From NCBI GenBank assembly GCA_947478175.1, contig CANJUQ010000008.1:4761-68760 (forward strand): DNA of 64,000 bases, given 5' to 3'. The notes under the pieces were generated by a model that had not been told where the DNA came from, did not search any database, and saw only the letters and a list, made by a program, of their open reading frames with translations. A program made the position numbers and the translations under genes. The stretch comes from Thiotrichales bacterium. GTDB lineage: Bacteria > Pseudomonadota > Gammaproteobacteria > Francisellales > CACEW01. Shown here one piece after another: positions 3,620 through 42,890 of the stretch (positions are counted from its first letter, which is position 1; each line of letters opens with the position of its first letter).

Positions 3620-4524
3620 AAAAACGCTCCAGCTCCCTGGGCTAATAACTTATCAGCCACTTCAATCCCTAGAGATTCAGGATCTTCGTTAGATCCTTCA
3701 GCTCTAAAAATCTTCAGCCCATCGGGATGCGCCACTGCGCCTCTCAAATAAAATTCTCGACCCTGAAACTCTGCCAAAGCCCCAATCGGCGAATAACAGG
3801 AACCATTTAAAACTCTACACAACGCTCTTTCAGCCATGACCAAGGCATAACTTAAATCATGATTCAAAGGCTGCAATAGATCTTTTAAAAACTGATTTCC
3901 CGACAAGATTTCTATGCCTATGGCTCCCTGCCCTGCAGCGCTGAGCATTTGCTCTGGCTGAAAGAAATGCTGAATTCTTGACTCCAACCCTAATCTTCTT
4001 AAACCACTCGCGGCCAAAATAATTCCATCAAACTTTCCAGCATCCACCTGAGTTAATCTAGTTTGTAAATTCCCCCGACAAGACAAAATTTTTAAATCTG
4101 GTCGTAAAAATTTTAACTGGGCTTGTCGACGTAAACTGGATGTTCCAATGGACGCTCCAATGGGCAAAGACTCAAACGTCGGATATTTCAGACTCACCCA
4201 AGCATCTAAGGGATTTTCTCTGGGCAAAACAGCGGCAATCTCAAAAGCATCCTCTAAAACAACCGGCACATCTTTCATTGAATGAACCGCTAAATCAGCC
4301 TGCCCTTCTAACAAAGCCAACTCTAAATTTTTAACAAATAACGCCTTACCGCCGACTTCTCGCAGCGGCCGATCTTGGATTTGATCCCCCTGAGTCGTCA
4401 TGGGGATTAAACTAATTTCTAGCTCAGGATAAAAATGCTTTAAATATTTTGCGACAGCCCGGGCTTGCCAAAGCGCCAAGGCACTTTCTCGAGTTGCAAT
4501 TTTGAGGGTATGCACAGCGCTCAT
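3616..4524 (-). CDS. hemC: hydroxymethylbilane synthase (porphobilinogen deaminase)
   Basis: The translation has LKIATRESALALWQA, GDQIQDRPL and GSCYSPIGA motifs. I place the start at the internal ATG at 4524, which forms an ATGA overlap with the upstream esterase stop. The track ORF extends to 4596. Confidence 0.93.
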   Translation of the reverse strand: MSAVHTLKIATRESALALWQARAVAKYLKHFYPELEISLIPMTTQGDQIQDRPLREVGGKALFVKNLELALLEGQADLAVHSMKDVPVVLEDAFEIAAVLPRENPLDAWVSLKYPTFESLPIGASIGTSSLRRQAQLKFLRPDLKILSCRGNLQTRLTQVDAGKFDGIILAASGLRRLGLESRIQHFFQPEQMLSAAGQGAIGIEILSGNQFLKDLLQPLNHDLSYALVMAERALCRVLNGSCYSPIGALAEFQGREFYLRGAVAHPDGLKIFRAEGSNEDPESLGIEVADKLLAQGAGAFL

Positions 4525-5171
4525 AATCCCAACCACCCACGAATATCCGCTAATTCCTGAGGACAGACAGAATGCGCCATGGGGTAATCTTTCCAATCAA
4601 CTAAGTAACCCCAGTTTTTTAACTTTTCACAAGAATTTTTACCTAAAAATATGGGCAGCAAATCATCTTGATCCCCATGGCAAAATAAGATTTTTGTTTT
4701 CAAACTGGCTTCTGATTTATTTTTTTCAAATTTTTCAGCAATGGGTAAATAAGTCGACAAAGCTATGATGCCCCCCAAAGTCTTCTCAAAAGTTAAACCC
4801 GCAAATAATGCAATGGCCCCGCCTTGGGAAAAGCCAATTAAATAAATATTTTCAGGCAAGATTCCTAATTTAATTTCTTGCCGAATTAAATCTTGAATGG
4901 ATTCAGAGGATTCGATTACACCTCTTTCATCCTGACGCTGATCCAAAGACAAATTAGAAATGTCATACCAGCCCCGCATCACCAGACCATTATTAATACT
5001 AATCGGTCGGCGCTTGGCATGGGGAAAAATAAATTTAGTGTTTAAAAACCTAAAACTCGGAACTACAGGCGCGAAATCATGACCATCGGCACCAAGGCCA
5101 TGCAGCCAGATAATGGTCGATTGATGGGTTTCTTTGGGGTTAATAATCACTGGGGGCGTCTGAAGATCCAT
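4521..5171 (-). CDS. phospholipase/carboxylesterase family alpha/beta hydrolase
   Basis: 216 aa with a GFSQGG nucleophile elbow and C-terminal D and H residues. Size and layout match the esterase II / acyl-thioesterase family. Confidence 0.85.
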   Translation of the reverse strand: MDLQTPPVIINPKETHQSTIIWLHGLGADGHDFAPVVPSFRFLNTKFIFPHAKRRPISINNGLVMRGWYDISNLSLDQRQDERGVIESSESIQDLIRQEIKLGILPENIYLIGFSQGGAIALFAGLTFEKTLGGIIALSTYLPIAEKFEKNKSEASLKTKILFCHGDQDDLLPIFLGKNSCEKLKNWGYLVDWKDYPMAHSVCPQELADIRGWLGL

Positions 5172-5280
5172 GGAATATCCGCTTAATTAAAGTTGAGTAA
5201 AACTAGAAGCGGCGGATTATCTAATGTTTAAACTTTAGAACCAACTCTTTTATTGAAACTAAATTTTTTGATTTTTTTGA

Positions 5281-5313
5281 TTGAATAATATGTCTATTAG
5301 ACATATTATTCAA
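5281..5313. promoter_or_regulatory. perfect 14-bp inverted repeat, probable higBA operator
   Basis: TTGAATAATATGTC-tatta-GACATATTATTCAA, 40 nt upstream of the higB ATG. Confidence 0.5.
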
Positions 5314-9530: not shown

Positions 9531-11642
9531 ATGGAAAATCATCTAATTATTCAAGAAACCAAATCTAATCAAACCATCCCAATCATTCGGGTAGCCGTCC
9601 CGGGTCCCTTCTTAAATGGACTGGACTATGAAGTGGGTGAATTCCCTATTCCATTGCCTGGCACTCGAGTCCGAGTTCCCCTGCGAAACCGCAGTGTGAT
9701 TGGCGTTGTTCTGGGGACTATCTCGAAACAAACTCAAGACTTAAGCAAAAATTTAACCAAAAAATTTTCTTTAAAATCTATTCTTGAAATCATCGACGCT
9801 GAACCTATTTTCTCACCCAGCTGGCAAGATTTTTTACACTGGGCTTCTGACTACTATCACTATCCGATTGGCGACTGTTTATTCACGGCCATGCCTAAAA
9901 ATCTTTGTCAGGGAAAAAGTTTTTCTTTAAAAAAAACTCGCGCTTCAAAATTAAATTCCCCCCTCAATATTTCTTCTCAGCCTCCTCTCCGCCAAGAGAT
10001 ATTCATTCCAGCGCCGCCCCATGAATTAACTCATGAACAAAACACTGCTTTGATGGGTATTTCAGGCAAACTCAATCAATTCCAAGTTAGCCTAATTGAA
10101 GGCGTGACAGGCAGTGGAAAAACAGAAATTTACCTCCGACTGATTGAACAAATTTTAAAACAAAACAAACAAGCTTTAATTCTTGTCCCCGAAATTGGAT
10201 TAACCCCGCAGACAGTAGAAAGATTTACAAACCGTTTTTCAGCCCATCCTGACCTTCCAGGCATCATCATCGGTGTTTTACATTCCCAGCAAACCGAAAC
10301 TGAAAAATTAAATTTATGGGTCAAAGCGTCTTTGGGCGAGCCGTTAATTTTGATTGGTACCCGCTCGGCTTTATTTACGCCCTTTAAACAACTCGGCATG
10401 ATTATCATCGACGAAGAACACGACTTATCTTTTAAACAGCAAAGCCAATGGCGATATCACGCCAGAGATTTAGCGATCAAACGATCTCATCTAGAAAATA
10501 TCCCCTGTGTTCTGGGCACTGCGACGCCTTCTTTAGAAACTCGTTATCAAGCCCTACAAGGCAAATATCAGCACTATTTTTTATCCCAGCGCGCCGGCCA
10601 AAATAATCTTCCCAATTGTTTTCTAATTGATCTAAGAGCACAAAAAAATCGAGCGGGCCTAACGGACAATTTAATCAAAGCTATCCAAAAACATCTGGAT
10701 CAAAAACATCAGGTTTTAATTTTTATTAATCGCCGAGGTTATGCCCCAGCGCTCACCTGCCATGAATGCGGTCATATTGAACAATGCACTCGCTGCGATG
10801 CTGCGATGACCTTGCATCAAAAACCCATGCGGCTTTGCTGCCATCATTGCGGTCGAGTCACAGGTATTCCTAAGATTTGCCCCCAATGTGAACAGATAGA
10901 TTCTTTAGGTGATGTTGGAGTTGGCACTGAAAAAATTGAAACAGCTCTCATAAATTTATTCCCCAATAAAAAAATTATCCGTATCGATAAAAGCAATACC
11001 AGTCAGAAGGGCCAGCTAGATCAATTACTTTCCAGCGTCCATGAACAAGAAGCCGATATTTTGGTCGGCACCCAAATGATCGCCAAAGGGCATCACTTTG
11101 AGCATGTCTCCATGGTCGGGATTATTAATATCGATGATGGTTTGATGAGCGCAGACTTTCGGGGTATTGAACGCTGCGGCCAGTTAATTACTCAAGTCGC
11201 AGGCCGAGCAGGTCGAGCGGGGCTACAAGGCGAAGTGTTTATTCAAACTTATCAGCCCACGCATCCGTTATTAACGACTTTATTAAAACAAGGCTATGCC
11301 GCGTTTGCTGATCAGCTTTCTCAGGACAGACAAGCCGCCGCATGGCCACCCTACAGCTATCTGGCGTTATTACATGCTGAAGCTAAACAAGCCAAACCCT
11401 GTATTGAATTTTTAAATCATGTCAGTGAGCAGCTGTCTAATTTCCCAGAAATTATGGCCCTAGGACCCGTCCCTGCTTTGCTTCAGAAAAAATCAGGGTT
11501 CTATCGTTACCACTTACTATTGCAAACTCAATCTCGACAAATGCTTCATAACGCATTGGATCAAATTATTCCCAGGCTTTATGGGCTAAAACAGCACCAG
11601 GTGCGATTTTCACTGGATGTCGACCCATTGGAGTTGGGGTAA
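9531..11642 (+). CDS. priA: primosomal replication protein N' (PriA helicase)
   Basis: Has Walker A GVTGSGKTEIY, a DEEH box and the Cys-rich zinc region CHECGHIEQCTRCD...CHHCG...CPQC. Confidence 0.93.
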   Translation: MENHLIIQETKSNQTIPIIRVAVPGPFLNGLDYEVGEFPIPLPGTRVRVPLRNRSVIGVVLGTISKQTQDLSKNLTKKFSLKSILEIIDAEPIFSPSWQDFLHWASDYYHYPIGDCLFTAMPKNLCQGKSFSLKKTRASKLNSPLNISSQPPLRQEIFIPAPPHELTHEQNTALMGISGKLNQFQVSLIEGVTGSGKTEIYLRLIEQILKQNKQALILVPEIGLTPQTVERFTNRFSAHPDLPGIIIGVLHSQQTETEKLNLWVKASLGEPLILIGTRSALFTPFKQLGMIIIDEEHDLSFKQQSQWRYHARDLAIKRSHLENIPCVLGTATPSLETRYQALQGKYQHYFLSQRAGQNNLPNCFLIDLRAQKNRAGLTDNLIKAIQKHLDQKHQVLIFINRRGYAPALTCHECGHIEQCTRCDAAMTLHQKPMRLCCHHCGRVTGIPKICPQCEQIDSLGDVGVGTEKIETALINLFPNKKIIRIDKSNTSQKGQLDQLLSSVHEQEADILVGTQMIAKGHHFEHVSMVGIINIDDGLMSADFRGIERCGQLITQVAGRAGRAGLQGEVFIQTYQPTHPLLTTLLKQGYAAFADQLSQDRQAAAWPPYSYLALLHAEAKQAKPCIEFLNHVSEQLSNFPEIMALGPVPALLQKKSGFYRYHLLLQTQSRQMLHNALDQIIPRLYGLKQHQVRFSLDVDPLELG

Positions 11643-14573: not shown

Positions 14574-15746
14574 CTACATAGCATCGACGGCATTACAAAG
14601 GAGGCTCACAGCCTCCTTTTTTGCAAGTGCCTTCGCCTTCTGACCCATGCTGTCTAATAGTTTTCTATCGTTAGATAAATCTTGAATCACTTGGGCTAAT
14701 TTCTCAGCGGTTAAATCTTTCTGAATTAAACAAATACCTGCACCTTGTTCTGATAACCATTCGGCATTCATACGCTGATGATCATCGACGACATTAGGAT
14801 GAGGAATAAAAATTGCTGGCAATCCAACCGCTGCGACTTCAGAGACGGTCAACGCTCCAGACCTGCAAATAATCAAATCTGCCCACTGATACTCCTGAAC
14901 AATTTCAGAAAAATAGGGGACCACTTGGATTTCATGTCCTGAATTATTTTTCATAAAATTTTTATAATTTTCTTGGGCTATTTCTAAAGTCTTAGGACCC
15001 GCTTGATGATGAATATTCATGGGATTTTTTATTTTCGAAAGGGCTTCGGGAATCAAAGTATTAAAAATCAAAGAGCCTTGACTGCCACCGGTGATTAAAA
15101 TTTTTAAAGGACCCTCACGCTTCCCCCCTCTCTGCCCCTCAACGCATACGCGTTTCGGGTCTGTCTCTCCCGCGAGGGGAGAGACGAAATCCATTCCATC
15201 TACAAATTTTGAACGAACAATTTCCAAAATATCCGCTCTAATCGGATTCCCAATCACTTCACTTTTAAAATGATTAATAGGAAACGCTGAAAATATTCTT
15301 GCCGCCATCTTGGCCAAATAAAAATTCGTCATGCCCAAGATCGCATTTTGCTCATGAATAAATAAAGGAACCCCCAATGATTTCGCCGCCAATCCCGCCG
15401 GCCCGCTGGCAAAGCCTCCAAAAGAAATAACTAGATCTGCTTTTTTATTTTTTAAAATTTTTCGAGCCTGTAATACGGCTCTCATTAATTTAAACGGTAA
15501 TTGGATCCAGCCCAGTAAGCTCTTGTTTCTGACCCCAGCAATTTTTAAAAAATCACTTTCTATTCCAATTCCAGCCTCAGGCACTAATTTTTTTTCTAAC
15601 CCCACTTCACTGCCAATCCAGCTAATTAAATAACCCCGCTGAATTAATTCTTTTGCGATGGCTAACCCTGGGTAAATATGTCCGCCCGTTCCTCCGGCCG
15701 TTATTACAATATTTTTAATATTTTTTAATTTTCTAATTTTGCTCAC
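14574..15746 (-). CDS. murG: UDP-N-acetylglucosamine--lipid I N-acetylglucosamine transferase
   Basis: Has GGTGGHIYPG and GGSQG motifs. At 390 aa it is longer than usual because of an in-frame repeat insertion. Confidence 0.93.
   Translation of the reverse strand: MSKIRKLKNIKNIVITAGGTGGHIYPGLAIAKELIQRGYLISWIGSEVGLEKKLVPEAGIGIESDFLKIAGVRNKSLLGWIQLPFKLMRAVLQARKILKNKKADLVISFGGFASGPAGLAAKSLGVPLFIHEQNAILGMTNFYLAKMAARIFSAFPINHFKSEVIGNPIRADILEIVRSKFVDGMDFVSPLAGETDPKRVCVEGQRGGKREGPLKILITGGSQGSLIFNTLIPEALSKIKNPMNIHHQAGPKTLEIAQENYKNFMKNNSGHEIQVVPYFSEIVQEYQWADLIICRSGALTVSEVAAVGLPAIFIPHPNVVDDHQRMNAEWLSEQGAGICLIQKDLTAEKLAQVIQDLSNDRKLLDSMGQKAKALAKKEAVSLLCNAVDAM
14600..14622 (+). terminator. rho-independent terminator for the 14100-14564 gene, embedded in the murG 3' coding end
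   Basis: GGAGGCT-cac-AGCCTCC followed by T6. Confidence 0.55.
15131..15197 (+). repeat. 67-bp GC-rich element (family B) inside murG
   Basis: TTCCCCCCTCTCTGCCCCTC...GTCTCTCCCGCGAGGGGAGAGACGA. It has the same length and the same termini as the copy at 38851-38917. Confidence 0.75.
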
Positions 15747-27214: not shown

Positions 27215-27389
27215 ACCAAGGTGTTCCTAGCGTTATAAAAACACCTGGGTATAATCGCGCCCCGCCAGGTGGGTTAAGCGGGAGTTCTTTCCCATGGAGA
27301 TATCCAAAAATATTTTCATGTTTATCTTGAAAAAAAAGAAACTCCGACTAATTTCCGCCGGGTTCGATTTAACACTAGGGAGTAAATAT

Positions 27390-28049
27390 ATGAGAACACT
27401 TACTGCGTTAGCCGTTGCTGCCGCGTTATCTTTTGGCGTCACTGCCGCTTATGCAAGCCAGAGCGAAGGTGGATTTTCCATCGGCGTGAAGGGTGGTTAT
27501 AACGATATGTCTGTACCAACAGCTAGCCAAACTTATACAGACATCTTCAACGGAGACACGGTCAATGTGTCTGAAAAGAAAGATAAATACATGGCTGATA
27601 TTCATGTCGCTTATCTTTGGCCCGTTGCTGATACTTTCCAATTAGGTGGCCAATTGGGTTATTCCTATTATGGAAAATATAAAACAACTGTAACAGAAGG
27701 CTCTGACTCGACAGAAGCTACTGCCAAATTCTTTGACCCTAATTTACAGTTAGTGGGCCAATGGAATATCCAACAATGGTTCCTCCAAGCACGCGCAGGG
27801 GTTGGTTATTTCAAACCTACAGTCTCTAATGGCTCTGATAACGATGTAACTTATGAGACGAAGAGCACCTGGGACCCTGTAGCAGGCATTTCTGGCGGTT
27901 ACTTCTTCACCGACAACTTCTCAGCTGAAGTTTTCTATGATCACGTCTTTGGCACAAATTATAATTCTGCTTCTAATTTGAACAGCGATACTAGCAACAA
28001 GCCACCGACCATGAACTCCGCTGGTATTGGTATCACTTACAGCTTCTAA
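27390..28049 (+). CDS. outer-membrane beta-barrel protein (small porin/OmpA-like barrel family)
   Basis: Has a signal peptide MRTLTALAVAAALSFGVTAAYA, alternating amphipathic strands and a terminal YSF. Start at ATG 27390, after GGGAG. Confidence 0.75.
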   Translation: MRTLTALAVAAALSFGVTAAYASQSEGGFSIGVKGGYNDMSVPTASQTYTDIFNGDTVNVSEKKDKYMADIHVAYLWPVADTFQLGGQLGYSYYGKYKTTVTEGSDSTEATAKFFDPNLQLVGQWNIQQWFLQARAGVGYFKPTVSNGSDNDVTYETKSTWDPVAGISGGYFFTDNFSAEVFYDHVFGTNYNSASNLNSDTSNKPPTMNSAGIGITYSF

Positions 28050-28258: not shown

Positions 28259-28993
28259 ATGAAATTATCTAATCTTTTAGTTGCAGCCGCTGCACTCTCT
28301 TCTTTATCAGCTTTATCCACCGCTGCTTTCGCAGACGACGTTACTTCCACTAACAATAGCCAAATCTATGTTGGTGCTGAAGGTGGTTTAGCCGATGCTG
28401 GTTTTGACTTAGACAAGTTTTACAAAAGCTATATTCCAAGCGATTTAACTGGAACCGATTTGACCAGCGTTTCCTACAAACGCAAAAGCTACAACCTTTA
28501 TGGCAACTTGCATGTAGGCATGTTGTTCCCAGTCGCCGATGATATTTCTGTTGGCGGTCAATTGGGTTATGACAAATTTGGCAACCAACAAGTTAAATTG
28601 TCTGCCACCAATTATTCCAATGTTTCTGACAGCTCCAAAGAATCAGAAAAAATCTCTGACTTGAATGCTGAATTAGTCGTTCAAGGCGTTTACAACAAAT
28701 TCTTCGGTAACGTCCATGGCGGTATGGGTTATTTCATGATTGATAATTCTGGCGAAGTTAAAAACTTCTCCTCAGGCGTTGTTCCTGCTTCTGCAGCTAA
28801 CACCACTGGCGCACCTCAAAACAAAAACAGCTTGCGTCCAATCGCTGGCGTTGAATTTGGCTACAGCTTTACTGACCACGTTCAAGGGTATGTTGATTAC
28901 AACCATGTGTTTGGAACCAACACACACGGCGACTTCAGCAACAAAGTACCTAACATCAATACCTTGGGTGTTGGCGTTAACTACGTGTTCTAA
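28259..28993 (+). CDS. outer-membrane beta-barrel protein, paralog of 27390-28049
   Basis: Has a signal peptide ending AFA, the shared motifs GGQLGY and HVFGTN, and a terminal YVF. Confidence 0.75.
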   Translation: MKLSNLLVAAAALSSLSALSTAAFADDVTSTNNSQIYVGAEGGLADAGFDLDKFYKSYIPSDLTGTDLTSVSYKRKSYNLYGNLHVGMLFPVADDISVGGQLGYDKFGNQQVKLSATNYSNVSDSSKESEKISDLNAELVVQGVYNKFFGNVHGGMGYFMIDNSGEVKNFSSGVVPASAANTTGAPQNKNSLRPIAGVEFGYSFTDHVQGYVDYNHVFGTNTHGDFSNKVPNINTLGVGVNYVF

Positions 28994-32159: not shown

Positions 32160-32345
32160 CACCTGCCGCCTGCGGGGTTCGATTGTTGAGATGATCTCGA
32201 GCTAATACTTTAAAACCTCGGGGTTCAGCCAAGTTTCAGGAGTGCATGCCAGCTTTAAGCCGGAAGCCCGAAGAAACTTTTAGAATCCCACCTAGTCCTC
32301 CCAGTTCGAGGATACGAAACATAGGCCTGGCGGGCGGCACTTCTT
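32160..32345 (+). ncRNA. ssrS: 6S RNA
   Basis: About 185-nt non-coding stretch immediately upstream of the 5-formyl-THF cyclo-ligase gene, which is the conserved ssrS-ygfA synteny. The 5' UGCCGCCUGC can pair with the 3' GCGGGCGGCA. The internal GAGUGCAUGC...GAAGCC and the 3' GGCGGCAC resemble E. coli 6S RNA. A possible promoter is TTGACT (32129) with TAGCTT (32152). The ends are approximate. Confidence 0.7.
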
Positions 32346-32993: not shown

Positions 32994-33779
32994 ATGTTTA
33001 ATACGCCCTATGATCTGTACCACTTTATTCACAGACTTAAAAGAGAAGCTGATGACCTAACTAGTCGTCCTGGCCTAGCAGGTGCCACTCTTTTTGAAAA
33101 TTATCAAAAAATATTGGAACTATTTCTATCTTTTGAAACACGTCACTCAGCCTTATTAAAATCCCCCTCTCTTTTTGAGGGAATCAACTTAGGCCGCACG
33201 GCTAAAGATCAAATTGATACAGCCTGGCATGTGTTTTTTGAAAATAAAACAGTCACTAAAGCTAGATTTTTTCGAAAAGATATTACCTATGAATTTAAAA
33301 CGATTGCTCACCCATTCGATCTATTTGCTGCCACACGGCTTTATCTGCTCTTGGAAGGCACTATGGGCTTTGGGACACCCCTTGAAAAAAATAACCTGCT
33401 TAAAGATATCCCAGATCTCCTATTGAATCGGCTAGTCAAATCAGTCCATCACAAACATGATCGCATTGAAAAAGCCCTTACAGAACATGCGTTTTGCAAA
33501 AGCCGCGCTGAAGTGCGTGAATATCTTGCGACGATCCAACAACTCAAAACAGCTTTCTCGAAGGGCGAAGCAGCACCAGCAGGACACGGTTCAATTTTTT
33601 TCGACATCATAGAAATAGATTCCTTCAGCTCACCCGTTGGCTTTTCGCCTGTTTCTTCCACCCCCATGTACACAGCAACAACAGCACTCACAGCCGTCGC
33701 TTCAGTAGATGCAGTGGCAACAGAAGACCCTCCGTTTGTCTGTGGTGGTTCCGGAGGTGGTAGTTCTGGCCTTGGTTAA
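32994..33779 (+). CDS. hypothetical protein (261 aa) with Ser/Thr/Ala/Gly-rich C-terminus
   Basis: Long ATG ORF with no recognisable motif. Convergent with the MATE-like gene. Confidence 0.5.
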   Translation: MFNTPYDLYHFIHRLKREADDLTSRPGLAGATLFENYQKILELFLSFETRHSALLKSPSLFEGINLGRTAKDQIDTAWHVFFENKTVTKARFFRKDITYEFKTIAHPFDLFAATRLYLLLEGTMGFGTPLEKNNLLKDIPDLLLNRLVKSVHHKHDRIEKALTEHAFCKSRAEVREYLATIQQLKTAFSKGEAAPAGHGSIFFDIIEIDSFSSPVGFSPVSSTPMYTATTALTAVASVDAVATEDPPFVCGGSGGGSSGLG

Positions 33780-33789
33780 TTCCAGCTAT

Positions 33790-35913
33790 TTACAATACTG
33801 ATGGGTACACACCTGAAGCTGATACTGGGCTAACTGGTGCTGGTACTGGTGTTGAACTTCTTCTGTCTGGAGGAATGCCTAAGCCTTCTTCGATGTTCGT
33901 TCCATCTTGAAGTTCGAAATACTCATCACCTGATGGCGTGCGGAATGTAGTGCTGCCAGAGAGCACTCCCGATGCTGCACGGTGTTGCTCTTGAGGTACA
34001 ACGCCTACACCGCCGTATTGGCCTCCGTTTCCGAAAGATTGGAGTCTATGCCGACGATTGAAACATGCGGCTATTCTCGTACAAGGCTTAGATTCTTGCG
34101 GAAGATCAGTGCTTTGATAATTAGCTCGGAACCAAAGTGCTAAACACAAACTTCCTGCAACGGCATTTCCAACAATACCCCCTATCGCGACGCCATAAGG
34201 ACTGTGCATTACCTTGACGCCCAGCTCATAAGAAAGAAGGAGTCCGACCAGCCCCATTCCAAACAGGCTGGCGAACATGGGATTAAGGGTTACTTTAGTT
34301 AACCCCTGATACGCACTCGCCGCCCCGTAACGAAGACCATCGAAGACCTGTCCTACAACCACTAAACTCATAATGGGCAGCAACCAATCATGAACAAAAG
34401 GACTGCTCAAGGCTTCAGCGCCTAAAAATAATTGAGCCACTGGGTTAGCAATAAAAGGCGTGATGCCACACCAAGCAACTGCCCAGATCAACGAAAGCAT
34501 CATGCTGATGTTCCCCAGACGATACGCAGCAGAAAAATCTTTAGCCCCTACCATAGTTCCTATTAATTGAACCCCGGCATTCCCAAAACTCTGCGTCACG
34601 GTAAAAACCAAATTACTCACTGTACTCACAGCACTTGCGACTGTGACAGCGTCTTTGTTAATCCAACTATAAAAACCGGTACCAAAAAAAGCAGAAGACC
34701 ATTCAACGCCTAAGCGTCCAATCAAAGGAAGGCCTGTGCATAAAAACTCTTTCATCATGGAACCTGGAGGGAGTTTGTAACTTAAATCTTCCCGCTCCTT
34801 GGAAATTAAAAATTGACGAAGCTCATCAACCTCTGAAGAGGACAACATCAGTGTTTTAAAATCAGCGATGGGGAGTACGTTATTCCCTTCTTGTACGTCA
34901 ACATGAATGCTACTCACTCCCATGTTCACTGGATTCACTGGGCTCTCTGAGTCCACTTCCTGCTCCATTATCTCGGAAAAAATGCTTTTTAGGCTCTTTG
35001 TTTTTAAATCCTGTTGTGATTCCCTCAGAAAGTCCTGCAAGGCCGAAAAATCCCTTGATTCAAATTTTGAAAATGGGAATTTTAAAAATTCACTCCTTAA
35101 TTTACGACTTTTAGCGTCTTCAAGTTTAAATCGAAAAAGACCTGAGAGTTTTATTTCCCCAACATTTAAGTCCTTCCCAGAGACTTTTAAAACGGGTGGG
35201 GTTTTCTTAAATGCAATAAGCAGACTAAAAGCAATCGCGTTAAACCAAATACGAACTGCCCCTGCAATCGCTAACCCTTCAAGGCCTAGCTCAGGGAGGC
35301 CCATTTTGCCCATGCTCAAACCATAACTAAAAAACCACACCAAAGGCACGCTGCTAAGATTAAGCGCCGTCACCCAACCCCTTTGGTTAAACAAATTCAA
35401 ATAAGGCCGAACTACTGCCCCATAAGCAAAAGCAGGCACACTGACAAGGTACCAACGCAAAAATTTTTGAGTCATTGAAGTAATGAGCTTATTTTCATGA
35501 AAAATATTTTCCAGGGCAAATCCTGAAAAATAAAAAGCTGCCACGGTGATGGCAGCAGAAACAAAGGCGTAATAAAGTCCTTGCCGCCCCATACGAAAAA
35601 CGGCCTCTCGGGCCGTTTTCTTATCTTTTTCTGCTTGGGCCGCATGGATGGCCCCTAGCTTCTCGCCCATCAGGCCGTATAAGGCATTCATCGGCGCTGA
35701 CAAAGCAGTCTGCGATAACTTATAAGTCATCACCCACTGATTGGCCGTTAACTCGTCCGGTCCCAAATGAGCCATATAGATCTGAGTTATTATGTCAGTC
35801 GCTGTTGACGCCAACATGCCCGCTACAATAGGCATTGCAGTCTTGATAACTCCACAGGTTTCCCCCCATCTGGAACTTTGTAAAACGGTTTGAGTAACGC
35901 TAGCCCCTGACAT
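33790..35913 (-). CDS. MATE/MOP-superfamily-like polytopic membrane protein with central insertion and C-terminal tail (paralog 1)
   Basis: 12-TM layout. The N-terminal pattern IKTAMPIVAGMLASTATDIITQIYMAHLGPDELTANQ resembles MATE transporters. AGGAGA lies before the ATG. Confidence 0.68.
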   Translation of the reverse strand: MSGASVTQTVLQSSRWGETCGVIKTAMPIVAGMLASTATDIITQIYMAHLGPDELTANQWVMTYKLSQTALSAPMNALYGLMGEKLGAIHAAQAEKDKKTAREAVFRMGRQGLYYAFVSAAITVAAFYFSGFALENIFHENKLITSMTQKFLRWYLVSVPAFAYGAVVRPYLNLFNQRGWVTALNLSSVPLVWFFSYGLSMGKMGLPELGLEGLAIAGAVRIWFNAIAFSLLIAFKKTPPVLKVSGKDLNVGEIKLSGLFRFKLEDAKSRKLRSEFLKFPFSKFESRDFSALQDFLRESQQDLKTKSLKSIFSEIMEQEVDSESPVNPVNMGVSSIHVDVQEGNNVLPIADFKTLMLSSSEVDELRQFLISKEREDLSYKLPPGSMMKEFLCTGLPLIGRLGVEWSSAFFGTGFYSWINKDAVTVASAVSTVSNLVFTVTQSFGNAGVQLIGTMVGAKDFSAAYRLGNISMMLSLIWAVAWCGITPFIANPVAQLFLGAEALSSPFVHDWLLPIMSLVVVGQVFDGLRYGAASAYQGLTKVTLNPMFASLFGMGLVGLLLSYELGVKVMHSPYGVAIGGIVGNAVAGSLCLALWFRANYQSTDLPQESKPCTRIAACFNRRHRLQSFGNGGQYGGVGVVPQEQHRAASGVLSGSTTFRTPSGDEYFELQDGTNIEEGLGIPPDRRSSTPVPAPVSPVSASGVYPSVL

Positions 35914-36043
35914 ACGACTTTTCTCCTGTTATTTTTTAACCCATTAGAAAATACCGCGCAAAGTACTATAAAAACATCAAAGAAAGAACGCTAAAAGATA
36001 ACAACTAAAAAATAATAAATTTAAATCAAGCGTGTTTTATGTT

Positions 36044-36378
36044 TTTATTTTTTCACATACGGGACATAGCCCGGTTGCCAAATTTTGGCATCAATCGCCG
36101 CAATGACTTCTTGTTCAAACATCGGTTTCGTTAAACCTGATCTCACTGCTTCCAAAGCCACATCTATCGCCACTTGGCATGAGACAGACCTAATTTGATC
36201 TAACGGCGGTAGTAAATTTTCTTCTGTGAATAATCCTGGTTGGCCTGAAACACCTAAATAAAACGGTCGGTTTTAAATTTTTAACCACATCGTAAAAATT
36301 AATGACCCCAGGCTGACGCAATGTCCAATTTTGATAAACCGCTTTTTTCTGAGCGAATGGAGCTTGAAAAGACAACAG
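36044..36378 (-). pseudogene. malic enzyme (maeA) 3' fragment with internal deletion and frameshift
   Basis: Nucleotide-level match to 38960-39147 plus 39469-39618 of the intact maeA. Track ORF 36190-36375 reads SFQAPFAQKKAVYQNW..INFYDV, matching maeA SFQAPFAQKKSAYQNW..INFYDV, and then loses frame. Confidence 0.85.
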
Positions 36379-36428
36379 AATATCTTGCAGTGCTCAGGAA
36401 AACCAGAACAACTGGCCTAACAACTAAC

Positions 36429-38198
36429 CTAACAGACACTGTGAACTGTTACAGGGCTAACTGGCACGGGTGTTGAACTGCTTCTGTTTGCAGGAGGAGT
36501 GCTCAAGCCTTCTTCGATGCTCGTTCCATCTTGAAGTTTGAAATAATCCTTACCTGATGGCGTGCGGAATGTAGTGCTGCCAGAGAGCACCCCCGATGCC
36601 TCACGATGTTCTTCTGAAGGTACAACGCCTTCGCCTACACCGCCGTATTGGCCTCCGTTTCCGAAAGGTTGGAGCCTATGCCGACGATTGAAACATGCGG
36701 CTATTTTCGTACAAGGCTTAGATTCTTGCGGAAGATCAGTGCTTTGATAATTAGCTCGGAACCAAATGCCCAAACATAAACTCCCCGCAATAAAATTCCC
36801 CAAGATGGCTCCCGTCGCAACACCCTCAGGACTCTTCATCGCCTTCACACCCAAGCCATAAGAAAGACTCAGCCCAACCAAGCCCATTCCAAATAAACTA
36901 GAAAGCATGGGCTGAATAGTCTTTTTTGTGAGGCCTTGATAAGCACTCGCGGCAGCGTAGCGAAGCCCATCAAAGACTTGTGCCACAACCGTCAAGCTCA
37001 TGATGGATGGCAACCAAGCGAGTACCAAAGGATTATTTACAGCGTCAGCCCCTAAAAATAACTTAGACACTGGATTAGCAATAAAAGGCGTGATAACACA
37101 CCAAAGCGTCGCCCAAATAAGCGGAAGAATAATACTGATATTCCCCAGACGATAAGCTGCTTCAAAATTTTTGGCCCCCACCATGGTTCCCAATATTTGA
37201 ACTCCAGCATTCCCTAAACTCTGTGTCACGGTAAAGATCAAGTTACTGAAAATGCTGACAGCACTCGCCACGGTCAGAGCCTCTGAGCTAATCAAATTAT
37301 AAAAAGCACTTCCAAAAAAAGCAGAGGACCACTCCACCCCCAACCGTACACTTAAAGGCAGCCCTGTTTGTAACAGCTCTTTCATCATGTCCCAGGAGCC
37401 TGCTAATTTAAATTTAAACAGCCCTGAAAGCTTTATTTCTCCGATGTTTAGCTCTTTCCCAGAAACAGTTAAAACCGCTGGTGTTGTTTTACATAAAATA
37501 AGCGCTGTAGAAGCAATCGCGTTAAACCAAATACGACTAATCGCTGCCAACGCAAGTCCTTCAATGCCTAGTTTAGGAAACCCAAACCCACCCAGCCCGA
37601 ACCCATAACCCAAGAGGACCATCAAAGGCACACTGGCATAATTAAAACTTGAGACCCAGCTTCTTTGGTTCAACACGCATAGATAAGGCCTGACCGCCGA
37701 ACCGTAACTAAAGGCCAAAACACTCGGGAGATACCAACGTAAAAATCTTTGAGCCATTCCAGTAATAATGGCGTTTTCATGAAATAGCCTTCCCAACACA
37801 AACCCTGAAAAGTAGAAAGCTGTTGCCACGATCGAGGCAGAAGCTAAGGCGTAATACAGGCCTTGTTGCCCCATAAGAAAAACGGCCTCGCGGGCCGTTT
37901 GTCTATCTTCTTCTGTGGTGGCTGCATGAATGGCCCCCAATTTATTACCTAACAAGCCATATAAGGCGTTCATAGGCGCTGATAGCGCCGTCTGGAATAG
38001 TTTGTAAGTCATGGCCCACTGATTGGCGGTTAATTCATCTTTACCCAATCGCGCCATAAAAATCTGAGTCGCCATGTCAGCCGCTGTGGATGCCAACATG
38101 CTTGCCATAATGGGTCCTGCCGTTTTTATCACCTCACAAACTTCTGTTTTCTGTGCCTTGATTTTCAAGATGGTTTGAGTAAAACAAGTCCCTGACAT
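36429..38198 (-). CDS. MATE/MOP-superfamily-like polytopic membrane protein with C-terminal tail (paralog 2)
   Basis: Collinear with 33790-35913. Start placed at ATG 38198 (MSGTCFTQ), aligned with the paralog 1 start and preceded by AGGAGA. Confidence 0.68.
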   Translation of the reverse strand: MSGTCFTQTILKIKAQKTEVCEVIKTAGPIMASMLASTAADMATQIFMARLGKDELTANQWAMTYKLFQTALSAPMNALYGLLGNKLGAIHAATTEEDRQTAREAVFLMGQQGLYYALASASIVATAFYFSGFVLGRLFHENAIITGMAQRFLRWYLPSVLAFSYGSAVRPYLCVLNQRSWVSSFNYASVPLMVLLGYGFGLGGFGFPKLGIEGLALAAISRIWFNAIASTALILCKTTPAVLTVSGKELNIGEIKLSGLFKFKLAGSWDMMKELLQTGLPLSVRLGVEWSSAFFGSAFYNLISSEALTVASAVSIFSNLIFTVTQSLGNAGVQILGTMVGAKNFEAAYRLGNISIILPLIWATLWCVITPFIANPVSKLFLGADAVNNPLVLAWLPSIMSLTVVAQVFDGLRYAAASAYQGLTKKTIQPMLSSLFGMGLVGLSLSYGLGVKAMKSPEGVATGAILGNFIAGSLCLGIWFRANYQSTDLPQESKPCTKIAACFNRRHRLQPFGNGGQYGGVGEGVVPSEEHREASGVLSGSTTFRTPSGKDYFKLQDGTSIEEGLSTPPANRSSSTPVPVSPVTVHSVC

Positions 38199-38311
38199 AT
38201 GACTTTTCTCCTGTGATTTCTTAGCCAATTAAAAAATACAGCGCAAAGTACTATAAAAATATTAAAGAAAGAACGCTAAAAAATAACAGCTAAAAAAATA
38301 ATAAATTTAAA

Positions 38312-38836
38312 TCAAGCAGGCTCTGTCAGGTCAAATCTCTTACGAATAAAATAAATCAGCCCAGACAAGACCAAAGCAATCGCGACCCCAACACATGATT
38401 CTAGAAATCGCGAAGAGGCATTCACCCAGGGACTGATATAAATACCTCCCACCTGACTCACCGCGAAAATAATGGCCACTGTGATACAGCTCAGACGATA
38501 GAGCGATAGTTTAAAGAACGCACAAATCATGACTGATAAAAGCATGCCAATAAAAAAAGATTCGTCGTGATAGCCCATGAAAGAAAAAACAATCCAAGAA
38601 ATCAAAACGCCTATCAGAGTCCCCAAAACACGGTTTTTTGCATTGTTTAACATTTCTCGATAATTAACATGTCCAATAATCACCGCTGAGATCATGGCCC
38701 AGAGCCCACCAATCAAAGGGCTTCCAGCATGTAAATAATGAGAAATCCAAGCGCCCAATAAAAAACCAATCAAAGCTGTGACACTGGCTTCAAGCGCTGT
38801 GAGCAATTTAAAACGACGAATGATTTTTTTGAGCAT
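38312..38836 (-). CDS. FUSC/aromatic-acid-exporter-like small membrane protein
   Basis: About 174 aa with 5-6 TM helices. Start at ATG 38836 (MLKKIIRR). The upstream part of the track ORF is just the translated family B repeat. Confidence 0.55.
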   Translation of the reverse strand: MLKKIIRRFKLLTALEASVTALIGFLLGAWISHYLHAGSPLIGGLWAMISAVIIGHVNYREMLNNAKNRVLGTLIGVLISWIVFSFMGYHDESFFIGMLLSVMICAFFKLSLYRLSCITVAIIFAVSQVGGIYISPWVNASSRFLESCVGVAIALVLSGLIYFIRKRFDLTEPA

Positions 38837-38850
38837 TTTATTTTTCCTAT

Positions 38851-38917
38851 TTCCCCCCTCTCTGTCCCTACAGGCTAGGGCCTTTCGGGCCTGTCTCTCC
38901 CGCAGGGGGAGAGACGA
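38851..38917 (+). repeat. 67-bp GC-rich element (family B), intergenic copy
   Basis: TTCCCCCCTCTCTGTCCCTA...GTCTCTCCCGCAGGGGGAGAGACGA. The termini are identical to the murG copy and the central ~13 nt differ. Confidence 0.75.
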
Positions 38918-38959
38918 TTCAAGCAATCAGCAGGGCCTAAAATTCGCCCCATTATTCTT

Positions 38960-40672
38960 TTATCTCTGTTTTTTCACATATGGGACATAATTGGGCCACC
39001 AAATTTTGGCATCAATCGCTGCAATGACTTCTTGTTCAGACATCGGTTTCGTTAAACCTGATCTCACTGCTTCCAAAGCAACATCGATAGCCACCTGGCG
39101 TGAGACAGACCGAATTTGATCTAACGGCGGTAGTAGATTTTCTTCTGAATTATTTTTAGCAGGCGATAAAGCTGCAAGCGCTTTCGCCGCGACCATAAAC
39201 ATGCTGTCCGTCACATGCTTGGCTTTGACCGCAATAATCCCCAAACCCATCCCCGGGAAAATATAAGAATTATTGGTCTGATCAATATGCCTAGATTTGC
39301 CATTAAACATCACATCAGGAAAGGGACTTCCCGTTCCCATAATCACACGACCGTCTGTCCACCGACACAAATCCTCAGGTTTTCCTTCACTGCGAGAAGT
39401 GGGATTAGAGAGTGGGAAAATAATGGGCCGTTGGGTCTTAGACGCCATGAGTTTCACGATTTCTTCTGTGAATAATCCTGGTTGGCCTGAGACGCCCAAC
39501 AAGACCGTTGATTTTAAATTTTTCATGACATCGTAAAAATTAATTGTCCCAGGTTTTTGTAAGACCCAATTTTGATAAGCCGATTTTTTTTGAGCAAATG
39601 GGGCCTGAAAAGACAAAAGACCTGACATTTCTTCAGTTAATAACCCATGAGCATCAATAATAAAAAATCGCGCACGAGCCTCAGATTCAGACAAACCTGC
39701 AGCCATCATGGCTTGGGCCATTAAATTACTAATACCGCAACCGGCCGAACCTCCACCGACAACGACAATCAATTGATCTTGAATCTTACTTCCAATGGAT
39801 TGAACCGCGGCCAAAAGCGTCCCTGTTGCCACAGCAGCTGTCCCCTGAATATCGTCATTGAATGTACAAAGTTGATCTCGGTATTTAGCCAAAATAGGGT
39901 TCGCATTTTGTTGAGCGAAATCTTCCCACTGCAATAAAACATGCGGGAATCTTTTTTTAATCGCTTTAACAAATAGGTCCACAAAATCTTCATATTCTTT
40001 GCCGCGGACACGCTCATGACGCCAACCCATATAAAGCGGATCTTTCAATAAATCCTGATTATTGGTCCCCGTATCAAGCAAAATAGGGAGTGTCTTAGCG
40101 GGATGAATTCCGGCACACGCGGTATAAAGCGCAAGTTTTCCAATGGGGATTCCCATTCCTCCCGCCCCTTGATCGCCCAAGCCTAGAATTCTTTCACCAT
40201 CTGAAACGACGATGGCTTCCACCGCATCAAAACGAATATGGCTAAGAATTTCATCCAGATTGTCTTTGCAAACAGGGGTCAAATATAAGCCCCGAGGACG
40301 GCGATAAATATGACTAAAATTTTGGCAGGCCTCACCAACAACTGGCGTATAGACAATCGGCAGCATCTCTTGAATATGGTCAACTAACAGGCTGTAAAAC
40401 AAAGTTTCGTTGGAGTCCTGTAATTCACGCAGATAAATATATTTTTCAATCGGCTTAGATTTGTTTTGGAAAGCTTGATAAGAGCGTTTCTTTTGAGTTT
40501 CTAAATCACTCACACCAAACGCTAACAGGCCATGTAAACCAAAAGCATGACGCTCATCCTCAGGAAAAGCTGAGCCTTTGTTTAAAATTGGATTGCGAAC
40601 CAGATCAAAATCAGATTGATTTACTTCGTAATAGACATGCCCTACAGCGTCTCTTTTTTCCTGATGATGCAT
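38960..40672 (-). CDS. maeA: NAD-dependent malic enzyme
   Basis: 570 aa with VYTPVVGEAC, GLGDQGAGGMGIPIGK, GGSAGCGI and FPLSNPT motifs. Confidence 0.93.
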   Translation of the reverse strand: MHHQEKRDAVGHVYYEVNQSDFDLVRNPILNKGSAFPEDERHAFGLHGLLAFGVSDLETQKKRSYQAFQNKSKPIEKYIYLRELQDSNETLFYSLLVDHIQEMLPIVYTPVVGEACQNFSHIYRRPRGLYLTPVCKDNLDEILSHIRFDAVEAIVVSDGERILGLGDQGAGGMGIPIGKLALYTACAGIHPAKTLPILLDTGTNNQDLLKDPLYMGWRHERVRGKEYEDFVDLFVKAIKKRFPHVLLQWEDFAQQNANPILAKYRDQLCTFNDDIQGTAAVATGTLLAAVQSIGSKIQDQLIVVVGGGSAGCGISNLMAQAMMAAGLSESEARARFFIIDAHGLLTEEMSGLLSFQAPFAQKKSAYQNWVLQKPGTINFYDVMKNLKSTVLLGVSGQPGLFTEEIVKLMASKTQRPIIFPLSNPTSRSEGKPEDLCRWTDGRVIMGTGSPFPDVMFNGKSRHIDQTNNSYIFPGMGLGIIAVKAKHVTDSMFMVAAKALAALSPAKNNSEENLLPPLDQIRSVSRQVAIDVALEAVRSGLTKPMSEQEVIAAIDAKIWWPNYVPYVKKQR

Positions 40673-40762
40673 AAAAAAATATCCTGTTTAATCTGGTTAA
40701 TAAAGAAGCTCCGGAGTAAATCAGGAAAAATTGATATCGCCAATAAAATCTAGTTTGATTCT

Positions 40763-42205
40763 TTATTCTGGAGATCGCGAAGGACGCGGATGGGGTTTCT
40801 GCTGATTAGATTGATTATTTGACCGGCCATTATATCGGCGAAACGGTCTAGACCCTGAATGAGAAGACCTTGGATTCTCACCCTGTCCTGCTTGTGAATT
40901 TTTAGAAACATTCACAAATCCATAAAGCAAAATACTGGAGACTAATAATCCCATGCCATACACAATCACAGTCTCACCCGTACTCATGAGGGCCCAAGCC
41001 GAATAAATCAAAGCCAGTACAGCAATACCAATATCAAAACGACGGCGCAGTAAATTTTGCTTTTGATCTTTGGCCAAGATCCACTGAGCTGCTGCGGTAT
41101 ATAAATAGGGCAAAAGGGATGCAAAGACGGCGAGTAAAATACAAACATTAAATTGATCAATCAGGCTATGGGACATTTGCATCAGCAATAAAACCGTAAT
41201 TAACAAAGCCGAAATAGTTAAACCCAAATAAGGCGATCCATGATGATTTCTTCTCGCAAATAATTTAGGAAATAATCCATCATCCGCGGCTGCCATCGCG
41301 ACTTGGCCTTGTAACATGACCCAGCCATTGAGCGCCCCAAAACAAGAGATCGCAGCCCCTGCTCCAATCAGATATAACCCCGTTTTCCCAAACATAATGT
41401 TGGCAGCATCTGCAAAAGGACTGGTTGATTTAGCTAAGACGGCCGCGGGAATCATCCCCATGATGACCAGTGAACTAAAGATATAAATAAACGCGCCAAT
41501 CAATACACCAATCAAAGTTGCCAAAGGAATATTCCGCCTAGGATTTTCGACACTACTTTGAGGCACTGTCGCCGCTTCTAAGCCAATAAACGCCCAAAGG
41601 GTCAAGCTTGCTCCATGAGAAATCGCGACCCAGCTGGTTTCACCCGAAACATTTGTATCTTGAATGAGATAACTGGGATGAAAATAAAACCAACCCAATA
41701 AAATAATAATAATCAGGGGAATTAATTTAATCGTCGTTGAAATCAGCTGGAGTGTCCCAGCTCTCGCGATGCCAATAATATTCACAAAAGTTAAAACCCA
41801 AACAAATGCAATGGCGGTCCAAGTGGTTGCTTCCATGCTGGCCAAACTAGGAAAAAATACCCTGAGATAGCCGACTAAAGCTAATGCAATCGCAGCATTC
41901 CCAATCCAGAGCGCCGCCCAATAATGATAAGCTGTCTGGAATCCAATAAATTCACCAAAACCGGCTTTGGCATAGGCATAAGGCCCGCCCGTCTTGGGCA
42001 CTAAGACACTCATACGAGCAAAAACTAAGGCTAAAACAATAGAACCTAAAGCTGTTAAAACCCAAGAATAAAGACTGATAGATCCAATCTGAGCTAAAGA
42101 CGCAGGCAGTAGAAAAATCCCTGAACCAATCATGTTGCCAGCGACCAGCGCGATCAGCATCCAAAGGCCCAATTTCGCTGGGCGGCGAGAAGAAGACGAA
42201 GACAT
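40763..42205 (-). CDS. APC-family amino acid permease with basic C-terminal tail
   Basis: Has GNMIGSGIFLLP near the N-terminus and 12 TM helices. Start at ATG 42205. Confidence 0.85.
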   Translation of the reverse strand: MSSSSSRRPAKLGLWMLIALVAGNMIGSGIFLLPASLAQIGSISLYSWVLTALGSIVLALVFARMSVLVPKTGGPYAYAKAGFGEFIGFQTAYHYWAALWIGNAAIALALVGYLRVFFPSLASMEATTWTAIAFVWVLTFVNIIGIARAGTLQLISTTIKLIPLIIIILLGWFYFHPSYLIQDTNVSGETSWVAISHGASLTLWAFIGLEAATVPQSSVENPRRNIPLATLIGVLIGAFIYIFSSLVIMGMIPAAVLAKSTSPFADAANIMFGKTGLYLIGAGAAISCFGALNGWVMLQGQVAMAAADDGLFPKLFARRNHHGSPYLGLTISALLITVLLLMQMSHSLIDQFNVCILLAVFASLLPYLYTAAAQWILAKDQKQNLLRRRFDIGIAVLALIYSAWALMSTGETVIVYGMGLLVSSILLYGFVNVSKNSQAGQGENPRSSHSGSRPFRRYNGRSNNQSNQQKPHPRPSRSPE

Positions 42206-42466: not shown

Positions 42467-42890
42467 AATGGCACTGACTTAAGGTCGGCAAGGCTTATCT
42501 TGCTTGAATTCCCCTCTCCAATATTGGAGAGGGCAAGCCACTGAAAGTGGCGCGGGAGAGGGATTTAAAAAACATCCCACTATTGCAAGTTCAGATAAAT
42601 AGCTTCAAGAACAGCTGCTTTTTCTTTAAATACTTCATGATTACGTCATGATTTCAAAATCTAATGACGTGAAATCCCAAAGACTCTAAATGCTTTGTTC
42701 GATTTGAATCTCTTTTGGCATGTGATTCTTCCAGATGTTGACTGCCATCGAGTTCGATAATCAGATATTTTTAATGTGTTATTTATTTTTAAATCCCTCT
42801 CCCGCGCCACTTTCAGTGGCTTGCCCTCTCCAATATTGGAGAGGGGAATTCAAGCAAGATAAGCCTTACCGACCTTAAGTCAGTGCCATT
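42467..42890. mobile_element. foldback / MITE-like element with 105-bp terminal inverted repeats
   Basis: 42467-42571 is the reverse complement of 42786-42890 with a single mismatch. The arms carry nested hairpins (CCCTCTCC-aatatt-GGAGAGGG and GCCAC-tgaaa-GTGGC). Confidence 0.65.
42579..42770 (-). pseudogene. DUF559 (Vsr-like endonuclease) C-terminal remnant
   Basis: The reverse frame reads KYLIIELDGSQHLEESHAKRDSNRTKHLESLGFHVIRF then TGA then NHDVIMKYLKKK. A 1-nt shift restores AAVLEAIYLNLQ. The N-terminal half is missing. Confidence 0.6.

Follow-up and report, generated by a model that had tools for sequence, protein, structure and literature searches.

The 64,000-nucleotide stretch studied here (hereafter the window) belongs to a contig of a metagenome-assembled genome (MAG) and carries on its minus strand two adjacent copies of a unit that links maeA, the gene of NAD-dependent malic enzyme, to the gene of a MATE-like transporter. 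Unit A consists of a maeA relic, leader A and MATE-1, whereas unit B contains intact maeA, a small membrane protein gene, leader B and MATE-2. We consider it probable (approximately 70%) that the two units derive from an old, head-to-tail duplication in situ, subsequently whittled by deletions, on the chromosome of an uncultured gammaproteobacterium that resembles the Legionellales; the duplicated segment would have begun with maeA, included the leader and ended five codons ahead of the MATE stop. The first-pass annotation of the window had likewise read the locus as a tandem copy of the stretch between maeA and MATE that later suffered deletions, and this overall reading is now supported by the collinearity of the repeats and by the rates of non-synonymous (dN) and synonymous (dS) substitution, which are given throughout as simple NG86/Jukes-Cantor estimates. 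The divergence of the duplicated units is a mosaic, and their dS of ~1.1-1.2 indicates that the duplication is old.

Collinear homology of the two units

The five minus-strand features of the locus were confirmed with the list of open reading frames (ORFs) and with Pfam and NCBIfam scans, in the order maeA, small FUSC_2 membrane gene, MATE-2, maeA relic and MATE-1. The gene order and positions assigned previously are thus retained, the limits of the relic being refined to 36379-36045. Sensitive self-BLASTN over positions 33000-41500 returned exactly four matches and no others, all of them direct, collinear and on the same strand. The first joins the 3' halves of the MATE genes (33814-34759 to 36442-37389; 78.6% identity, E = 0) and the second their 5' halves together with both leaders (35125-36031 to 37407-38317; 72.8%, E = 1e-149), while the remaining two connect maeA with the 3' piece of its relic (36048-36226 to 38969-39147; 90.5%, E = 4e-67) and with the 5' piece of the same relic (36218-36379 to 39460-39620; 81.5%, E = 2e-39). 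Repeat families D1-D7 are also found at the locus and support head-to-tail copies.

The homology between the units therefore crosses gene boundaries and non-coding DNA, and is not merely that of two paralogous ORFs. Collinearity outside the coding regions, on which the earlier reading had been staked, is present in the self-comparison, and includes the leaders at 35914-36030 and 38199-38311 that had been described as collinear. The junction between the 3' end of maeA and the leader is preserved in unit A, where leader A begins 14 nt past the stop codon of the relic. At the other end, homology stops at 33809 / 36436, five codons short of the MATE-1 stop. The relic 5' end and the MATE-2 3' end are separated by a junction filler of 56 nt (36380-36435), which has no significant match to maeA, to the region upstream of maeA, to the downstream flank of MATE-1 or to the rest of the window; it supplies the final two codons of MATE-2 (C and stop).

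A tandem arrangement may also be mimicked in an assembly by co-existing strains or by a mis-joined repeat. The origin of the window from a MAG contig lends some weight to such an artefact, as do independent Logan assemblies, which break inside the tail tract shared by the MATE genes, so that linkage across this tract rests on the assembly of the window. Four Logan contigs from four other sequencing runs have a flank 100% identical to the window, and all of them end at 33957, inside an exact repeat of 39 nt (33928-33966) common to both tails. This is the position at which a 31-mer first falls wholly inside the repeat, precisely where contig ends are expected for a 31-mer with two contexts, and breaks of this kind fit the presence of two copies in the reads. 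Other evidence is contrary to an artefact. The units are 73-79% identical over most of their length, with a longest exact shared run of 60 nt, which makes collapse or expansion of a repeat unlikely; moreover, the inter-unit junction (36380-36436) is unique sequence rather than a repeat-mediated join, and the relic, which has undergone deletions of its own, precedes leader A and MATE-1 within unique sequence. We consequently regard an assembly artefact as the least probable of the explanations considered here.

The relic of maeA

The intact maeA of unit B (38960-40672, minus strand) encodes a protein of 570 aa that matches Pfam malic and Malic_M and scores 801 bits with NCBIfam NF010052 (cutoff 326), covering profile positions 7-562 of 564. 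Its closest homologs are 77-81% identical and all lie in a murC-murB-maeA-nadC context. The corresponding element of unit A is a relic of 335 bp (36045-36379, minus strand), equivalent to maeA 39620-39460 joined to 39147-38965. Its 5' piece (36218-36379) represents maeA codons 352-404 and its 3' piece (36045-36226) codons 512-569, followed by a TAA (36045-36047) that stands two codons ahead of the normal maeA stop; codons 1-351 and 405-511 are missing. The match to two joined pieces of maeA noted previously is therefore correct, but the ends of the pieces are now placed at 38965-39147 and 39460-39620 instead of 38960-39147 and 39469-39618.

The two pieces of the relic overlap at the deletion junction (36218-36226), where a single copy of TTTCTTCTG is left. 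Intact maeA holds two copies of this 9-mer, at 39139-39147 and 39460-39468, and its presence twice in maeA and once in the relic indicates an in-frame loss of 321 bp (107 codons) between direct repeats (spacings 2921 vs 3242). The internal deletion of ~320 bp at a shared microhomology that had been recognized earlier is accordingly one of exactly 321 bp, the shared repeat being retained with the slightly corrected positions given here. The relic also has a +1 insertion near 36259, which shifts the frame.

The substitutions separating the relic from maeA are of the coding type. Of 48 differences, 29 (60%) fall at third codon positions, and no internal stop is found in the 112 aligned codons, over which dS is 0.52, dN 0.069 and dN/dS 0.13 (28 synonymous and 17 non-synonymous differences, i.e. 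17/45 non-synonymous). This pattern departs from the averaged dN/dS of 0.55 expected of a pseudogene from birth (P = 1.4e-4). We then polarized the changes with three outgroup maeA genes (L006, L008 and L010), which divide them about evenly between the branches of the relic and of intact maeA, with several amino acid changes on the intact branch; at codons 370, 372, 373, 383 and 388 it is the relic that retains the ancestral residue, whereas intact maeA is derived. These sequence comparisons indicate that the second maeA remained functional, and was maintained by purifying selection, during the greater part of the period that followed the duplication. On the basis of the dN/dS of 0.13, its truncation would thus be a recent deletion rather than a breakpoint of the duplication, recent because the relic branch is about as poor in non-synonymous changes as the intact branch and is free of internal stops. 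The dN/dS, the codon positions and the outgroups hence agree with the sequence of duplication and later deletion suggested initially, with a selected gene deleted down to its present remnant.

The structure of the relic could be explained most economically by a duplication breakpoint inside maeA, with codon 352 of maeA and the 3' end of MATE as the limits of the duplicated segment. One tandem-duplication breakpoint always leaves a truncated copy, so that the fragment would have been dead on arrival and no 5' deletion would be needed; in agreement with this, the relic 5' end abuts the junction without homology. However, a neutral fragment should show an averaged dN/dS of ~0.5 or more and an even distribution over codon positions, not the values observed, and at a neutral divergence of ~1.2 it would be hardly recognisable, whereas the relic is 81-90% identical to maeA and lacks internal stops. 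Repeated conversion from maeA could preserve similarity but not differences that are biased to synonymous sites. A breakpoint inside maeA is rejected by the tests of dN/dS and codon position, and we hold it to be very unlikely.

The divergence of the relic is itself uneven. Its 5' piece, before the frameshift, has dS 1.06 and dN 0.13, and its 3' piece dS 0.34 and dN 0.045. The proportion of synonymous differences (pS) in the 5' piece (0.57) is indistinguishable from that in the MATE core (0.605; P = 0.68).

The MATE-like pair, its tails and its leaders

MATE-1 (33790-35913, minus strand; 707 aa) retains the ancestral 3' end and the downstream synteny, while MATE-2 (36429-38198, minus strand; 589 aa) starts with an ATG at 38198 that corresponds to the start of MATE-1 in the alignment and has the Shine-Dalgarno sequence AGGAGA ahead of it. 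Both proteins exceed the Pfam cutoff for MatE (PF01554; 24.9 bits) with 58.4 and 60.9 bits, respectively, and each contains two matched stretches. They remain under the cutoff of NCBIfam TIGR00797 (58-61 bits vs 147.4) and far under those of the NorM equivalogs NF001214 (PRK00187; 49-59 bits vs 449) and NF000263 (25-26 bits vs 950). Their profile scores accordingly class them as MATE-like, distant from NorM, and not as members of a named subfamily. The likeness to NorM-type MATE multidrug/cation antiporters resides in the MatE matches of both lobes, in the best PDB matches, which are NorM structures (E = 3e-8 for MATE-2), and in a predicted helical membrane core: hydropathy is consistent with many membrane helices, and the AlphaFold2 model of MATE-1 is all-helical, with the low confidence (pLDDT 48) of a four-sequence alignment; a 12-helix, two-lobe fold would be a candidate only. 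The differences from NorM-type proteins are an identity of only ~24-25% to ordinary MATEs, the scores below the TIGR00797 cutoff, C-terminal tails of ~110 residues rich in S, P and G, lineage-specific loop inserts, and a conserved upstream DNA element that this clade has as its own.

The two proteins are 71% identical and are each other's closest relatives; MATE-1 is 49-57% identical to the single MATE of a syntenic relative (locus L001, see below). In the codon alignment, one lobe has dS 1.24 and dN/dS 0.20 and the other dS 1.23 and dN/dS 0.14, which shows that both copies are under purifying selection. The extra, diverging transporter paralog that had been proposed is borne out by these values, and the asymmetry of rate between the paralogs is not significant (42 vs 29 unique changes). 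The major structural difference is an insertion of ~117 codons in MATE-1 (34762-35118, minus strand; residues ~266-384), which lies in the loop between the two lobes, is absent from MATE-2 and has no Pfam match. Of note, this insert shares with that of P0003, the MATE of L001, a motif of 34 residues (...LxxFLxxKxxxDLS...; pairwise E = 2e-4, a weak similarity). The insert of P0003 (residues ~96-196) sits in an earlier loop and is also devoid of Pfam matches.

A sharp change in divergence occurs just after the last membrane helix, where the tail tracts of MATE-1 (33870-34140) and MATE-2 (36494-36770) begin on the minus strand. At 34140 / 36770, identity switches within ~30 nt from ~65% to 93-98%, and this level is held for ~270 bp. 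The dS of the tail (codons 599-660) is 0.12, compared with 1.2 in the core, and synonymous differences are distributed very differently between tail and core (Fisher P = 1e-9); the best window of 270 nt contains 250 matches, whereas none of 5000 codon permutations exceeded 234 (P < 2e-4). The tract is confined to the region coding for the hydrophilic, cytoplasmic C-terminal tail, and looks like the product of gene conversion between the MATE copies. That nearby paralogs may evolve in concert through short tracts of gene conversion is well known in bacteria, tufA/tufB being a classical case. The tail tract resembles such cases in its sharp boundaries within genes that are otherwise ~65-75% identical, but differs from them because only the region of the cytoplasmic tail, and not that of the membrane cores, is homogenized.

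Leaders A and B, which precede MATE-1 and MATE-2 on the minus strand at the positions given above, are ~83-85% identical, whereas the third positions of the first 60 codons that follow are only ~49% identical. A leader core of ~70 nt was also found upstream of MATE genes in L001 (1701-1796) and in L002 (~9860-9935), the latter representing a distant lineage in which the MATE and its leader lie in an unrelated genomic context. Its consensus is roughly TTTTTTTAG...ATTCTTTC...TTTTTTATAGTACYTT..GCG, with a conserved part TTCTTTC...TTTTTATAGTAC. Local alignments of the leaders have z-scores of 12-14, 6-8 and ~10 relative to shuffles, and the core of leader B yields z = 14 with L001 and z = 8 with L002. 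The element is thus kept in the window, L001 and L002, the three lineages in which upstream DNA could be read, although their synonymous sites are saturated and their genomic contexts differ, and this conservation is probably, at least in part, functional. Since the leader is conserved across lineages, its similarity between the two units does not require recency. To judge from its distribution, it is probably a regulatory element at the DNA level, promoter or operator, that moves with the MATE family. A scan with the sigma-70 consensus detected no promoter on the coding strand of the leaders, and these show no consensus RNA structure; an Rfam scan of 33000-41500 at E <= 1 had no matches. A riboswitch or other structured RNA was considered for the leaders and for the GC-rich hairpin described below, and rejected on these grounds and on the weak fold score of the hairpin (z = -1.5).

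We also considered a recent duplication in which the cores were later replaced, producing young flanks and old cores. It was rejected because the divergence of the relic is of the coding type (dS 0.5-1.06) and because the leader is conserved across lineages.

The remaining difference between the units is a segment of ~630 bp (38318-38950) that is found in unit B only and contains the small gene together with a GC-rich palindromic element. The small gene (38312-38836, minus strand) encodes a membrane protein of 174 aa of the FUSC_2/ArAE_1 type (Pfam FUSC_2, E = 1e-12; 48.4 bits vs a cutoff of 25.6). Eleven homologs of 172-174 aa were found, those of 173 aa being 56-72% identical, and the three that were looked up (67-72% identical) are located elsewhere, with ligA or recO as a neighbor. 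The borders of the segment present no clear microhomology and no target duplication, and the relative similarity of its flanks between the units suggests that the indel is younger than the last homogenization there. The small gene is indeed absent from unit A, as noted at first, but the evidence favors neither its loss from this unit nor its later insertion into unit B. The palindromic element (38851-38917, ~67 nt), located between maeA and the small gene, folds as a long hairpin and has no Rfam match. A second copy, 82% identical, occurs at 15121-15187, in frame within murG (14574-15746, minus strand), and lengthens the linker that joins the two GT28 domains by ~23 residues (FVSPLAGETDPKRVCVEGQRGGK); the element is thus a dispersed repeat, which recalls the in-frame palindromic elements of Rickettsia.

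Comparative context and proposed course of events

The clade of the MATE-like pair is rare. A word-indexed search of 5.8 billion proteins retrieved the pair of the window, P0003 (54-57% identity) and the P0004 cluster (42-47%), followed by ordinary MATEs at ~24%, while 10 of 1.84 billion representatives reached E < 1e-30 in a full HMMER search. When the MATE alignment was used to scan collections of genomes and of metagenomes, each gave one locus, both of the distant P0004 lineage. None of these searches and scans yielded a genome with orthologs of both MATE-1 and MATE-2. One contig with a P0004-type MATE, L004 (CAMCUU010000008.1), has the same gene context as the environmental contigs L002 and L003; its record is titled Francisella tularensis subsp. 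holarctica, an organism label that looks doubtful.

L001, the locus that carries P0003, contains a permease, a single MATE, an unrelated ORF, 5-formyl-tetrahydrofolate (5-formyl-THF) cyclo-ligase and a NUDIX/NMN adenylyltransferase; it has neither maeA nor the small gene, and its one MATE directly follows the orthologous permease. This amino acid permease is 84% identical in amino acids between the window and L001, while the neighboring MATE is only ~55% identical, indicating that the clade evolves fast. For three flanking genes, dS between the window and L001 is ~1.6, and dN is 0.20 between MATE-1 and MATE-2 but 0.45-0.50 between either of them and the MATE of L001. The paralogs are therefore much closer to each other than to the MATE of L001, and this, together with the dS of the flanks, implies that the duplication post-dates the split from L001. 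The comparison of synteny that had been proposed for dating the duplication thus makes it younger than the split from one syntenic relative. Considering also that maeA and the small gene are located elsewhere in relatives, the maeA-small-MATE neighborhood appears to be derived here, at a locus that is prone to rearrangement. The slot between MATE and the cyclo-ligase is occupied in the window by an orphan ORF of 261 aa (32994-33779, plus strand), without Pfam or NCBIfam match, and in L001 by an unrelated orphan ORF of 441 aa (3974-5299), another sign of a variable locus.

The main rival to duplication in situ is the acquisition of a foreign copy from a sister lineage: a maeA-leader-MATE unit with the same gene order, dS ~1.1 away, would have been inserted beside the resident unit, the redundant maeA, incoming or resident, would have decayed at once, and later conversion would have produced the nearly identical tracts. 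This scenario readily explains why the parent of the relic was under selection during nearly all of the divergence although its inactivation is recent, and it fits the rearrangement-prone locus, with maeA and the small gene elsewhere in relatives and mobile palindromic elements nearby, as well as the unique insert of 117 codons in MATE-1. However, no donor lineage is known, among ~10 representative clusters with E < 1e-30 in 1.84 billion and with L001 as the only syntenic one, and a donor would need the same derived adjacency of maeA, leader and MATE. GC content is alike in the two units (0.455 and 0.466), and MATE-1 and MATE-2 are mutual closest relatives, as duplication in situ also predicts. 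We thus consider a foreign origin of one unit to be unlikely, while conceding it an appreciable weight.

If the units arose by duplication in situ, the events may be arranged as follows. The ancestral order would have been amino acid permease, leader and MATE, as observed in L001, and maeA would then have come to lie directly upstream of the leader in the lineage of the window, as its context in relatives suggests. The maeA-leader-MATE unit would have been tandemly duplicated at dS ~1.1-1.2, after the split from L001, and both copies of maeA and of MATE would have evolved under purifying selection, in accord with their dN/dS. Short recombination tracts between the copies, which the pattern of identity suggests, may have re-homogenized the region of the MATE C-terminal tail and perhaps the maeA 3' end, while the membrane cores went on diverging. 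Finally, the downstream maeA would have become dispensable, apparently in recent times, and would have been whittled by deletion of codons 1-351 with upstream sequence, by the in-frame deletion of 321 bp between 9-nt repeats and by the +1 frameshift. The outcome would be one working maeA and two retained transporter paralogs with diverged membrane cores and nearly identical tails, each behind its own copy of the conserved upstream element.

Models of duplication and divergence in bacteria, such as innovation-amplification-divergence, envisage tandem duplication, divergence and loss of the redundant partner. The locus resembles them in its head-to-tail, multi-gene duplicate, in which the MATE pair is retained and diverging and the redundant maeA has been removed by deletions, but differs in that the maeA copy was not lost quickly, having been selected for most of a dS of ~1, and in that no trace of higher-order amplification is left. 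Deletional decay of pseudogenes via short direct repeats has been described for reductive genomes, e.g. those of Rickettsia and Mycobacterium leprae. Here too we find a deletion of 321 bp between 9-nt direct repeats, a large terminal deletion and a frameshift; unlike in those genomes, the region is otherwise gene-dense and intact, and decay is limited to the redundant copy.

Several points weigh against duplication in situ as reconstructed here. A dS near 1.2 is close to saturation for a simple NG86/Jukes-Cantor estimate, and the relic offers only 112 aligned codons, with a gap in dS between its 5' and 3' pieces that is marginally significant (P = 0.035). It is also somewhat unexpected that a redundant maeA was long kept under selection and then lost. 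Since the searches yielded a single syntenic relative (L001) and, beyond it, one lineage at a greater distance, the reconstruction of the ancestral state and of the order of events is based on a very small number of genomes. Lastly, the window is a metagenome assembly in which the linkage of the two units rests on assemblies rather than on reads or long reads, and repeats at 33957 and 42838 mark the ends of the Logan contigs.

Additional features were observed in the vicinity of the locus. The gene for 5-formyl-THF cyclo-ligase is immediately preceded by a 6S RNA gene (32164-32340, plus strand; Rfam RF00013, 82.5 bits), in the classical ssrS-ygfA arrangement. Between the amino acid permease gene and mutS there is an inverted repeat of 105 nt (42467-42571 / 42786-42890), 99% complementary with a spacer of 214 nt, which looks foldback or MITE-like (like a miniature inverted-repeat transposable element); the Logan contigs L020 and L021 start at 42838, in its right arm. 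The only other pair of paralogs among the 67 ORFs of at least 100 aa in the window is formed by adjacent genes at 27294-28049 and 28259-28993 (plus strand), 35% identical, one of which matches an outer-membrane beta-barrel domain.

The function of the duplicated transporters invites a conjecture. All full-length members of the clade that we examined have long tails rich in S, P and G, which are probably disordered, and at least two of its lineages have loop inserts sharing a helical motif. In the window, moreover, the tails of the paralogs are nearly identical and their membrane cores diverged, a pattern that would fit two transporters with different substrates that dock to the same partner. 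The duplicated MATEs might then be something other than ordinary drug exporters; this partner could possibly be host-facing or regulatory, in a Legionellales-like intracellular bacterium. We offer this idea as a doubtful one, drawn from sequence features. Nothing relevant emerged when the literature was searched for a MATE effector or a duplication already described in Legionella.

In its essentials, the locus is a case of ordinary genome evolution that is unusually well recorded, following a known process and calling for no new mechanism. Seen as a duplication in situ, it would provide a clean and datable example of a bacterial tandem duplication in the course of resolving, in which the synonymous sites of the survivors and of the relic give the same age, and the substitutions of the relic suggest that a "redundant" enzyme gene was kept under selection long before it was deleted. 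Annotators should be aware that 36045-36379 is a relic of maeA and not a small gene. For the lineage, an uncultured Legionellales-like one, the analysis marks a locus that appears prone to rearrangement; for the family, it draws attention to a rare MATE-like clade whose upstream element is conserved and private, and the putative conversion tract would show which part of the transporter stays the same and which is free to diverge.

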